From IMG/VR virus record IMGVR_UViG_2534682325_000026: DNA of 15,065 nucleotides. One strand, given 5' to 3'. Position numbers: made by a program. The DNA is from a virus (Duplodnaviria > Heunggongvirae > Uroviricota > Caudoviricetes). Below, piece by piece: positions 12,001-15,000 of the stretch (position 1 is its first letter; each line of letters begins with the position of its first letter).

Positions 12001-15000
12001 TACGTGGAGCTTACGAGCGAGCAGGACAAATCTGCCCGTGGGCGTACTGGAATGACCACGATGTACGCACGATCGTTACGCTTGGGCGTTCCATCGGATT
12101 CGACCCCAAAATGGACATGCCTTTCGATGGCGAACGGCACAACGCCCTGGCTGATGCCCGTCATCAGGCAAAATATGTTTCCGCTATCTGGCAGAAATTA
12201 ATTCCTGCCACCAGCACAGAATTATGATTTTCCCGGGTGCAGCCGGTTTTGATGGAGAAAATTATGAACACCTTGTTTTTACTGATGGCTGAATTCAATA
12301 CCCCAAACATTGAACTCTCAGCAGTTAGCCAAAAGTACTTTGGTATGAGTCCAGCCACGGCAGAAGCAAAAGCAAACGCTTGTAAGTTGCCCGTTCCAAC
12401 ATATCGCATCGGCACATCACAAAAAGCAAAACGTTGCATCAATATTCAAGATCTTGCGGAATACATAGACAAAAGGCGAGAAGAAGGACGTATCGAGTGG
12501 GAACAGGTCAGAACAGTCAAACAGAAGGACAAAGAACATCACTAAAGAAAAAACCCGCCTGAAGGCGGGTTTTCAAAAAGCACCAGCTATGATCATGCTG
12601 CTTTGCGACGACGAAGCTTACCCTGCTGCTCTTTACCAGAGACAGTAGCGTGAGTGAACGCATTAGGAGCAGCCTTCATCAGAACTTCAACAGCAGCACC
12701 CATACCTGCGAATGCTTTCATTGTGTCGAACTTAACCTGTGGCTTGGTTGCTTTTTGATCTTTCATAGAAAACTCCCGAGACAGTAAAGGCGTCTCTAAC
12801 CCTTTCTTTAAAGCTAGCTTGTTTCGCTAACTTATGCCAATCGATCATGTCGATTGGTGACATCGTTTCTTAGTAGTTTAAGCACAAAACGACTGCCATA
12901 GATGTACCTTTAAGGTAATCTGGACGGGTATCCTACAATTTGTAGACCCTTCTCGTCTATACCTACTGAGCAAATTTAAGAAAGATATCCTGCAGCTCAT
13001 CAATGACTGCCGACATCACATAACCGCACTGTTCCATGCGGAAACCAAAAGACTCGTAATACTGCACCAGTTCTGGTACTGGCTCTACAATGTGGACAAC
13101 TTTACATTCAACAGCTTTACAAAATATAAAAGCACTCATAAGAGTGAGTAAAACCATGCGCCCTTTCAATGGGTGAGATTCATCTTCTCTAGAAAACCTT
13201 TCGATCATATGGATACGAAAGATGTTTTCTTCAACCCCATAAACACAAATTGCTGCTCCTGATGGTATTCCCTGAACCCGACCTTGCTGAACAAGTTTTA
13301 TGCAGAACTCATACTTTTCTCTGGAGTTGCCATAGGTACTTAACGCATAGTCCCATTCAAGCTCACCATAGCCACCACACAGAATCTTGTAATCATCATC
13401 ACTGAGCGGACCAACAGCAAGAGGTAAGCCGACATGATCAATAATCAACTGGATATTGTTACGTACTGATTGACCTATCTCGTCCAGGGTAAGCATCATG
13501 GCCTCTCAAGCGGAACACTAAAAGTCGCATTATATCTCATTCTTAAGCCGCGTATGGATTACACCTTGAAATGAAAACGCCGGGTTCCCAATAGGCTCCC
13601 ACAAAGTATATAACTATTTGTTTTTCAAAAACGGTACATCCTATCGAGCATTGGTGCAACGCTAAACCGACCACTCCAGTGAACGTCAGTTTTTTCAGGC
13701 ATTGCGCTGGTTTGGTTGATTTTTTGCATTTCAGAATTACCGTGCATTTTCAAATGTAGAGATTATTTTATCGATATATCATGTGGTTATGTTATTCAGC
13801 ATCACTGTTCAGGAGGCTCAATAACGGGGTACTATACCATAACAACAGGAAGCGCCTGTCTCATTGCAAAAGAAAATTGAGATCCTCTCAAGGCATGAAG
13901 CTCTCACGAAGTGAATATCTAATCTTATTAGATGTTAGCGTTGTGAAAAGCAATGATAAACAATACAGATTCGACGATAAATAAAAATCACACATTAAAC
14001 TCCGGTGATATCTCTCCCTGCTAATAGCACTGATAGAGAAAAAAAGAACCCAATAAACATTGGGTTCTTTTATGTAATACCTTTCATACCATCGAAGAAC
14101 TTCACATATTATTTCTCCGATTTAACCCCGAATAAATCATAAATTAATTTAGAAGTGCCTGTATATATTTTAATCTTTTCCTTTGAGTTTGGGTCAAACG
14201 ACTTAGCAAAGTCAATTAATTTCGGTGCAGCATCTCGCATTTTGCTTAAAATATCAGGGGCGAGCGTTCCTTCATTCACCAGATGTGACATCTTATCCAG
14301 ATAGCCATCAAAATTCATTTCTCCCCCATCTGCCAGACGCTTCATCTCTCCCAGGTACTTCTTCATATCACGTTGAGATAATTCTTCAAACTGAGCTTTC
14401 AGGTAGTTATCATTATATTCATTAATATTCACTCTTCCTGCAAAATCTGAGTAGACACTAGAATATGAAAGGGAAATTAACAGCGAAGCAAATAATTTTA
14501 AGCTGTTGTCATCATGTTCCTGGCAGGCATTAACAAACGTTAAGAAACCAGAACCTATTGCTTGCAAATGTATATTCGCTAAAGGTTCATTATCTTTAGA
14601 TTCCTCATAAAATAGCTGAACCGTGGAGGGAAGACCATTCTTGGTTTCTACATCAAAAGTACATCGTTCTATGAGTGTCGCATCTTTATTATCCTCGGGA
14701 TTACATATACTATTAATCGCGAAATGAAAAATAGCCCTGTCAACAACTGATGCAATAAATTCACGATCGTTTAATTCCTCATCAGTACAATCTCCAATAT
14801 ACTCATTGACACACATTTTGAGATCGTTTATTTGCTTAATTAACGTCACATTTTTTTCACGTGCAGTCCATAAATTATGAGTGATTCTTTGAATAAATAA
14901 ATCTATTTTTGCAATAATTATATCCCGATGACGCATCGTTGAATAATCAATAGATTTACCATATATACTATTTACTTTACCTTTGATTGCATCTTCATTA

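Follow-up and report, generated by a model that had tools for sequence, protein, structure and literature searches.

A GNAT-fold protein and its small basic companion: a two-gene phage cassette with a structured RNA leader, possibly of toxin-antitoxin type

Toxin-antitoxin (TA) modules of type II that belong to the GNAT/ribbon-helix-helix (RHH) family, among them TacAT, AtaRT, KacAT and ItaRT, join an enzyme adapted to tRNA with an antitoxin whose gene lies upstream of the toxin gene and overlaps it. In the reverse-order type II modules higBA, hicAB and mqsRA the toxin gene comes first, and the antitoxins carry helix-turn-helix (HTH) DNA-binding domains. Here we examine a two-gene pair at the extreme right end of a prophage remnant in Escherichia coli O157:H7, directly inside attR, on a 15,065-nucleotide stretch of viral DNA (IMG/VR record IMGVR_UViG_2534682325_000026; "the window" denotes this whole stretch). 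The genes encode an acidic 178-residue protein of GNAT fold (p178) and a basic 57-residue protein (p57), and the spacer between them specifies a conserved RNA leader. The reading preferred here, at a probability of roughly 0.4, is that the two constitute a TA-like module: a non-canonical GNAT toxin with a labile small antitoxin.

The pair stands outside the GNAT/RHH family. p178 has no Pfam GNAT match, and its partner lacks an RHH or DUF1778 domain; p178 is acidic (isoelectric point, pI, 4.8), unlike the tRNA-adapted enzymes; and no open reading frame (ORF) is encoded between attR and p178, the p57 gene lying downstream instead, with its own promoter-like element and structured leader. Likeness to higBA, hicAB and mqsRA is one of layout only: the putative toxin gene comes first, the second gene has a promoter-like element of its own, and p57 is likewise small, predicted to be disordered and probably labile. 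The proteins themselves are unrelated, and p57 has no recognisable HTH. As in type II TA systems generally, the putative toxin gene was never seen without the putative antitoxin gene.

Phage morons (lambda bor and lom, HK97 gp15, stx in the Q-S slot) provide a second comparison. The pair likewise appears to be a self-contained unit with promoter and terminator, inserted at differing points of syntenic phage genomes, including the slot between Q and the lysis genes and the tail operon; it differs in its new gene content, its two genes, and its internal structured leader. The com-mom system of phage Mu, in which a GNAT-fold enzyme modifies DNA and a small translational regulator works on an RNA hairpin, is alike in concept only, with its acyltransferase-fold phage enzyme, basic protein of about 60 residues, and hairpins at a ribosome-binding site. 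There the gene order is reversed; p57 lacks zinc-binding cysteines; and the hairpins described here stand ahead of the p57 gene instead of the gene for the enzyme. Profile comparison rejected a relation: hhalign gave 4.5% probability for the p178 family against Mom, and 0.2% for the p57 family against Com. Finally, sister dusA lambdoid prophages have modules of the PanA-PanT kind, with a Panacea-domain antitoxin, in exactly this attR-proximal position, upstream of that same p57 gene; none is in the window, and their proteins have no relation to p178.

Literature searches by accession and PHROG number found no paper on these proteins, nor did searches on GNAT combined with anti-phage, toxin or phage-defence terms and on dusA defence hotspots. 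A preprint describing an E. coli pangenome defence screen mentions no GNAT system (10.1101/2022.05.12.491691).

Two proteins outside the curated families

Both genes lie on the minus strand, p178 at 12963-13499 and p57 at 12593-12766, just where a first-pass annotation of the window had placed them. That annotation described the smaller ORF as missing from the gene track. This was true of its own track; RefSeq/PGAP and the annotation of phage mEp460 both include the ORF. In RefSeq the proteins are hypothetical (p178, WP_000956557.1, there starting at the second methionine of the 178-residue ORF; p57, WP_000654815.1); in mEp460 they are gp23 and gp24, likewise annotated as hypothetical. Both are real coding genes under purifying selection: the median pairwise ratio of nonsynonymous to synonymous rates is 0.07 for p178 and, across 34 distinct coding sequences, 0.15 for p57.

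Neither protein has a curated family. p178 gave no match at E<=1 to Pfam or NCBIfam; p57 matched neither, and no DNA-binding or RHH domain is recognisable in it. The PADLOC-DB 2.0.0 defence models matched neither at E<=1; sequence and profile searches of the PDB returned nothing useful for either; and the PHROGs matches, phrog_4350 (p178) and phrog_2741 (p57), are of unknown function. The first-pass statement that no family could be named thus stands for sequence and fails for fold, p178 being a GNAT. The AlphaFold2 model of p178, built on an alignment of 31 homologues, is confident (predicted local distance difference test, pLDDT, 93.5; predicted template modelling score 0.90) and shows a GNAT alpha/beta fold, whose closest solved counterparts are NatD and TacT3.

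The p178 family is small, with 93 clusters at E<=0.001 in a profile search of 1.84 billion representatives. Ten of its distant relatives gave no Pfam match either, and so provide no bridge to a named GNAT family. Three elements are invariant: H97 and E100, in the strand 93-101; H109-P-L-x-G113-x-M115; and Y148-x3-G-F. The second lies between strand 93-101 and helix 115-130, the expected place of the acyl-coenzyme A (acyl-CoA) loop, and matches the loop motif that follows strand beta-4 (Q/R-x-x-G-x-G/A) at the central glycine only. H97, E100 and Y148, at positions where GNATs place their catalytic residues, are candidates for catalysis. The family median pI is 4.5, and this acidity weighs against tRNA binding by the enzyme alone. 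p178 probably is an active N-acyltransferase that depends on acyl-CoA, and its acidic substrate surface would suit a cationic substrate.

p57 is basic, as the first-pass annotation had it (pI 10.5; family median 10.3). Modelled alone it is mostly disordered, with a single helix at residues 23-32 and a pLDDT of 59.5. Homologues down to 29-45% identity retain a 53-59-residue ORF with the same motifs: FDT (13-15), G23, L29, K31, P34, E46-x-Q-G-K/R, and a basic tail that nearly always ends in alanine. This C-terminal tail, EQQGKLRRRKAA in the window, resembles the C-motif-2 ClpX degron of MuA (CILEQNRRKKAI), and its last residues are like those of the ssrA tag (...ALAA) (PMC12723719), a similarity of sequence and nothing further. 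p57 is probably a dedicated partner of p178, folding only on binding and kept short-lived by its degron-like tail.

Signals for expression flank both genes. Upstream of p178 are a Shine-Dalgarno element, GAGAGG (13502-13507, minus strand), read from the sequence, and a promoter-like -10 hexamer, TATAAT (13529-13534, minus strand), 29 nucleotides before the ATG and with a weak -35. A promoter scan of the window made no call for this hexamer, which is put forward from consensus and conservation: the inspected loci of Enterobacteriaceae, whether of the dusA or the Q-holin context described below, have TATAAT, TACAAT, TAAAAT or TAGAAT about 30-35 nucleotides before the ATG of p178. The p57 gene has the good Shine-Dalgarno element noted at first pass (GGGAG, 12773-12777, minus strand, six nucleotides before the ATG) and, behind it, the strong intrinsic terminator (12549-12574), a G+C-rich stem of 11 base pairs followed by a T-run. 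On the other side of this hairpin, four nucleotides away, is the end of the convergent xis gene (12237-12545, plus strand). The hairpin is flanked by A-runs on its one side and by T-runs on its other; the terminator scan called it on the minus strand only, and it probably serves both genes. In the Q-holin context of Citrobacter, a homologous terminator (7913-7937 of that locus) stands behind p57.

A structured leader between the genes

In the window the p57 gene begins 196 nucleotides downstream of p178. A promoter-like element starts three nucleotides past the p178 stop codon (12930-12959, minus strand): TAGACG (12954-12959), 18 nucleotides, and TAGGAT (12930-12935). The pattern TAGAC(G/A)-N16-18-TA(G/C)GAT is kept in all Enterobacteriaceae copies and in Xenorhabdus, and in many relatives the TAG stop codon of p178 itself supplies the first three bases of the putative -35. 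Consensus and conservation together suggest a second promoter, for p57. Many relatives have ACGGGATCCCGT, a perfect palindrome of 12 base pairs, in the interval from the putative -35 to the -10, within the 12 nucleotides that follow the p178 stop codon; there the window has TAGAC-N7-GTCTA. Either could be a regulatory site.

The rest of the spacer is a conserved structured RNA leader of about 150 nucleotides, newly recognised here. Its minimum free energy (MFE) is -46.4 kcal/mol (z -2.76), and five hairpins, H2 to H6, form on the sense-strand RNA, all encoded on the minus strand. H2 (TTACC-N5-GGTAA, with core TACC-N5-GGTA; 12905-12917) is conserved in sequence. H3 (12859-12897), taken from the MFE fold and seen by eye across spacers, recurs at the same position in most lineages with a different sequence in each, in a region that aligns poorly. 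Next come H4 (CCAAUCGA-N5-UCGAUUGG; 12837-12857) and H5 (AAGUUAGC-N7-GCUAGCUU; 12811-12833); last is H6 (GAGAC-N9-GUCUC; 12778-12796), which adjoins the p57 Shine-Dalgarno element.

RNAalifold, applied to a MAFFT alignment of 19 distinct spacers, recovered H2, H4 and H5. For the combined H2/H4/H5/H6 structure, 91.6% of alignment cells pair, against 21-44% when the partners are slid; changes on both sides of a pair number 29 cells, against 10.8 in shuffles, none of 500 reaching 29. A model-guided alignment, which is itself fitted to the structure, raises the figure to 93.5% of cells, with seven pairs showing compensatory changes (1 of 500 shuffles), and in it H6 pairs in 98% of cells. H4 pairs in 96%, with compensatory changes at two pairs and many G-U cells; H5 has such changes in four of its eight pairs, for example GGAUAG/CUAUCC and AGUAGUGG/CCACUACU. 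Cells that are not Watson-Crick comprise 48 G-U and 9 A-C, a bias indicating that the stems form on the sense-strand RNA and, as palindromes in DNA, are imperfect.

The first-pass annotation had noted two palindromes in this spacer and read them as resembling operator sites. Both are present, AAGCTAGCTT at 12811-12820 and CCAATCGA-N5-TCGATTGG at 12837-12857. The first is the 3' arm of H5 and the second is H4, and the compensatory changes and G-U bias make them part of the leader instead. That they serve as sites for a DNA-binding regulator of both genes is quite improbable, for H4 and H5 keep their pairing while their sequences differ by lineage; each motif occurs once per locus; and neither protein has a recognisable DNA-binding domain. 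What favours an operator lies elsewhere in the spacer; the operator reading is compatible with the other readings of the pair. H2 is conserved in sequence and varies on one side only (two sequences have U-G in place of C-G), with no compensatory change; as a repeated operator it was rejected, occurring once per locus, yet it could still be a protein-recognition element. The palindrome ACGGGATCCCGT of the relatives, not found in the window, could likewise bind protein.

A covariance model of H4-H6 found the leader, at E ~1e-16, in Citrobacter Q-holin loci that had not been used in building it. It found no match in Edwardsiella, Photorhabdus, Xenorhabdus or Shewanella, in phage Eeyore, or in loci with p57 alone; in this form, then, the leader is specific to Enterobacteriaceae. 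Rfam 15 contains no leader family matching 12767-12962: the only hit was Phage_DGR, on the opposite strand, at 16.8 bits (gathering threshold 50).

One small RNA was considered for the spacer and small ORF, and rejected. sRNA-17, an ArcA-regulated small RNA of E. coli K1, was reported in an mEp460-like prophage, in a study that dropped "hypothetical" genes before defining intergenic regions (PMC7719688). Its sequence is absent from the window. In mEp460 it maps to 12191-12211, near gp36 in the early region, and the corresponding stretch is deleted in the O157 remnant.

A mobile unit and its prophage setting

The two genes go together wherever p178 was examined. Among 95 loci with a full p178 match, drawn from one-genome-per-species contigs, IMG/VR and annotated phages, all 95 have p57 downstream, 93-236 nucleotides away. 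The pairing reaches the family's edges: a Shewanella p178 homologue (42% identity) is followed by a 57-residue ORF with the same motifs, and a remote relative (profile E-value 9e-32) has a p57-like sequence downstream, hidden in an over-extended gene call. In the loci examined, p178 is thus obligately followed by p57; the reverse does not hold. About 7% of complete E. coli genomes have the cassette, among them essentially all those listed for O157:H7; it is also present in Salmonella, Citrobacter, Enterobacter, Cronobacter, Edwardsiella, Photorhabdus, Xenorhabdus and Shewanella prophages.

Four phage contexts were seen. In the intact lambdoid phage mEp460, whose pair is 100% identical to that of the window, the cassette stands between attP and xis. 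Prophages of Citrobacter and Edwardsiella, and phage Eeyore, have it between the Q antiterminator and the lysis genes; Photorhabdus has it inside the tail and baseplate gene cluster; and in Shewanella it lies at a prophage end beside dnaB-alr. The pair is not specific to dusA elements. In the Q-holin context one terminator precedes the cassette and a strong one follows p57. With these terminators and the inferred promoters, the pair has the features of an autonomous mobile phage moron. In this context the cassette is followed, after a few short ORFs, by a gene for an N6/N4 DNA methyltransferase and then by the holin gene; the interval between cassette and methyltransferase gene holds a 63-residue ORF in Citrobacter and several short annotated ORFs in Eeyore, some of which overlap the p57-like sequence.

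The small gene also occurs alone. Of 5,426 complete E. coli genomes, 562 contain p57 and 358 contain p178, at least 356 of the latter with the whole region; about 200 therefore have p57 without p178. All six p57-only loci inspected are dusA prophages. In these, the slot from attR to p57, equivalent to about 12790-13640 of the window, is filled by a gene for an antitoxin-like protein with a Panacea domain (PF13274) and a gene of 128 or 139 residues, and two of the six have a CoiA-family gene between p57 and xis. Homology with the window begins at the p57 Shine-Dalgarno element: the leader is gone, and p57 lies 40 nucleotides behind the preceding gene. Relative to the window, the p57-only copies differ by about seven nonsynonymous and about two synonymous events, including the tail changes R54L, R54C and A57V, which suggests that p57 comes under relaxed constraint once p178 is lost, on a count of some nine substitutions in six loci. 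The attR-proximal slot of dusA phages behaves as a cargo hotspot that alternates between the GNAT cassette and a Panacea-domain two-gene module. This bears out the first-pass view of the right-end genes as accessory cargo beside att: the slot is variable, and other dusA lambdoid phages and E. coli genomes have different genes there.

The window itself, 100% identical to E. coli O157:H7 chromosomes, contains a decayed dusA-integrated lambdoid prophage remnant. RefSeq annotation of the identical region and the ORF list together place dusA at 542-1579 (minus strand) and a tyrosine integrase at 1668-2765 (plus strand), and identify tail-fibre, Lom and truncated tail-tip genes and the early-left lambdoid genes. 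Three tandem DUF1076 genes, which we take to be of the NleG-type effector family, lie between the integrase and the tail-fibre genes (3236-5239). The xis gene that converges on p57 is of the PrtN family. Alignment of the two dusA 5' regions (1440-1600 against 13600-13770) defined a 27-nucleotide attR core at 13644-13670, identical to the dusA 5' region at attL and marking the right boundary. RefSeq annotates, at the equivalent place, a dusA 5' fragment (about 13643-13747, minus strand); this fragment and the native dusA promoter, displaced here, lie directly upstream of p178. A scan of the window called no terminator in the interval from the fragment to p178, so host read-through into the cassette is plausible.

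Decay is evident elsewhere. The window has an element of the insertion sequence family IS3 (9059-10272; orfA 108 residues, orfB 296 residues), presumably IS629, that strain FDAARGOS_293 lacks in a region identical in other respects. The element apparently splits yfdR, a 5'-deoxynucleotidase gene with its C-terminal part at 10429-10764. According to RefSeq, the early-left S-adenosylmethionine-dependent methyltransferase and 3'-5' exonuclease genes (11069-11386 and neighbours) are pseudogenes, one with an internal stop and one truncated. These pseudogenes confirm that the prophage is defective, while the cassette is intact.

Function of the pair

If the pair is a TA-like module, its anatomy suggests how it might work. 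The cassette would comprise its own promoter, p178, a second promoter with the multi-hairpin leader of about 150 nucleotides, p57, and a strong terminator. The leader would set the rate of p57 synthesis, and in a lysogen p57 would hold the GNAT enzyme in check. When the element is lost, or an infecting phage shuts off host expression, the supply of p57 would fail; freed p178 could then acylate a host or phage target and stop growth. The outcome would be prophage addiction or the exclusion of other phages. In the window, read-through from the dusA promoter may add to expression of the cassette.

Several observations favour this reading. No enzyme gene was found lacking the small one, whereas small genes do occur by themselves and appear to drift; p57 looks like a labile partner that folds on binding; the architecture is that of a moron, persisting unchanged in a dead prophage; and the alternative cargo of the same slot is a Panacea-domain two-gene module. 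Other observations weigh against it. p178 is acidic, unlike the GNAT toxins that bind tRNA, and p57 has no recognisable DNA-binding or RHH domain. Gene order is reversed, with p57 downstream at 93-236 nucleotides, not upstream and overlapping. Within Enterobacteriaceae p57 is more conserved than p178 (88-98% against 66-89%), the opposite of most antitoxin/toxin pairs and a hint that p57 itself has a conserved partner in the cell. The cassette lies within late operons, and is co-oriented with them, in three of its four contexts, which also fits a lytic-cycle function. The relaxed-selection argument draws on just about nine substitutions, and the promoters are assigned from consensus and conservation alone. 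Toxicity, p57-p178 binding, acetylation and p57 instability are all predictions of the TA-like reading. A more specific proposal, and a doubtful one, is a new kind of phage-borne TA or exclusion module, combining an orphan acidic GNAT, a disordered p57 targeted by ClpX and a five-hairpin leader, and directed at a cationic protein or metabolite, not aminoacyl-tRNA.

Another reading is that p57 is the effector, acting on a conserved cellular target, and that p178 acetylates its lysines or its N-terminus. Acetylation could neutralise p57, making p178 an enzymatic antitoxin of type VII-like kind, or could activate it. Such an enzyme-substrate pair is unlikely, since some 200 E. coli genomes have p57 without p178, and the six examined retain an intact Shine-Dalgarno element with no leader; p57 alone is evidently tolerated. 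Moreover, the lysine of the QGK motif is arginine in the Shewanella and Eeyore homologues, and the p57-only copies appear to drift. That the two genes are separate morons that merely adjoin each other is very improbable. Each seems to have a promoter-like element, and p57 does occur by itself, but all the p178 loci examined have the two side by side, in four unrelated phage contexts and at identities as low as 29-42%, and constraint on p57 seems to be lost without p178.

A role in the lytic cycle must be weighed as well: p178 would modify a host protein, a defence factor or a nucleic acid, with p57 as its basic adaptor or regulator. The anti-CRISPR AcrVA5 is an acetyltransferase that modifies a defence factor. 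The late-operon positions speak for such a role, the cassette being embedded in and co-oriented with the Q-to-holin interval in several genera and the tail cluster in Photorhabdus, as does the DNA methyltransferase gene that often neighbours the Q-to-holin copies. We nevertheless consider it improbable. A terminator directly upstream, a conserved -10 and a terminator of its own are the usual design of a moron expressed in the lysogen. In dusA phages the cassette lies at attP, convergent with the early-left operon, in a slot whose alternative cargo is the Panacea-domain module. The pair is 100% identical in an O157 remnant so heavily decayed that it cannot grow lytically, and neither protein has sequence similarity to Mu Mom or Com.

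The cassette is widespread, yet neither of its proteins is in any curated family. A fold for p178, the two genes as one unit, the alternation of cargo in the dusA slot, and the structured leader RNA are new here, and together they turn "unknown cargo" into a directly testable question of two-gene toxicity and neutralisation, and of phage exclusion. If the TA-like reading is true, GNAT toxins would extend beyond the tRNA-acetylating TacT/AtaT type; if the pair proves to be a new kind of module, action on its target would be a novel way to arrest growth or to exclude phages. Should the TA-like reading fail, the pair would still be a widespread and conserved phage accessory enzyme.

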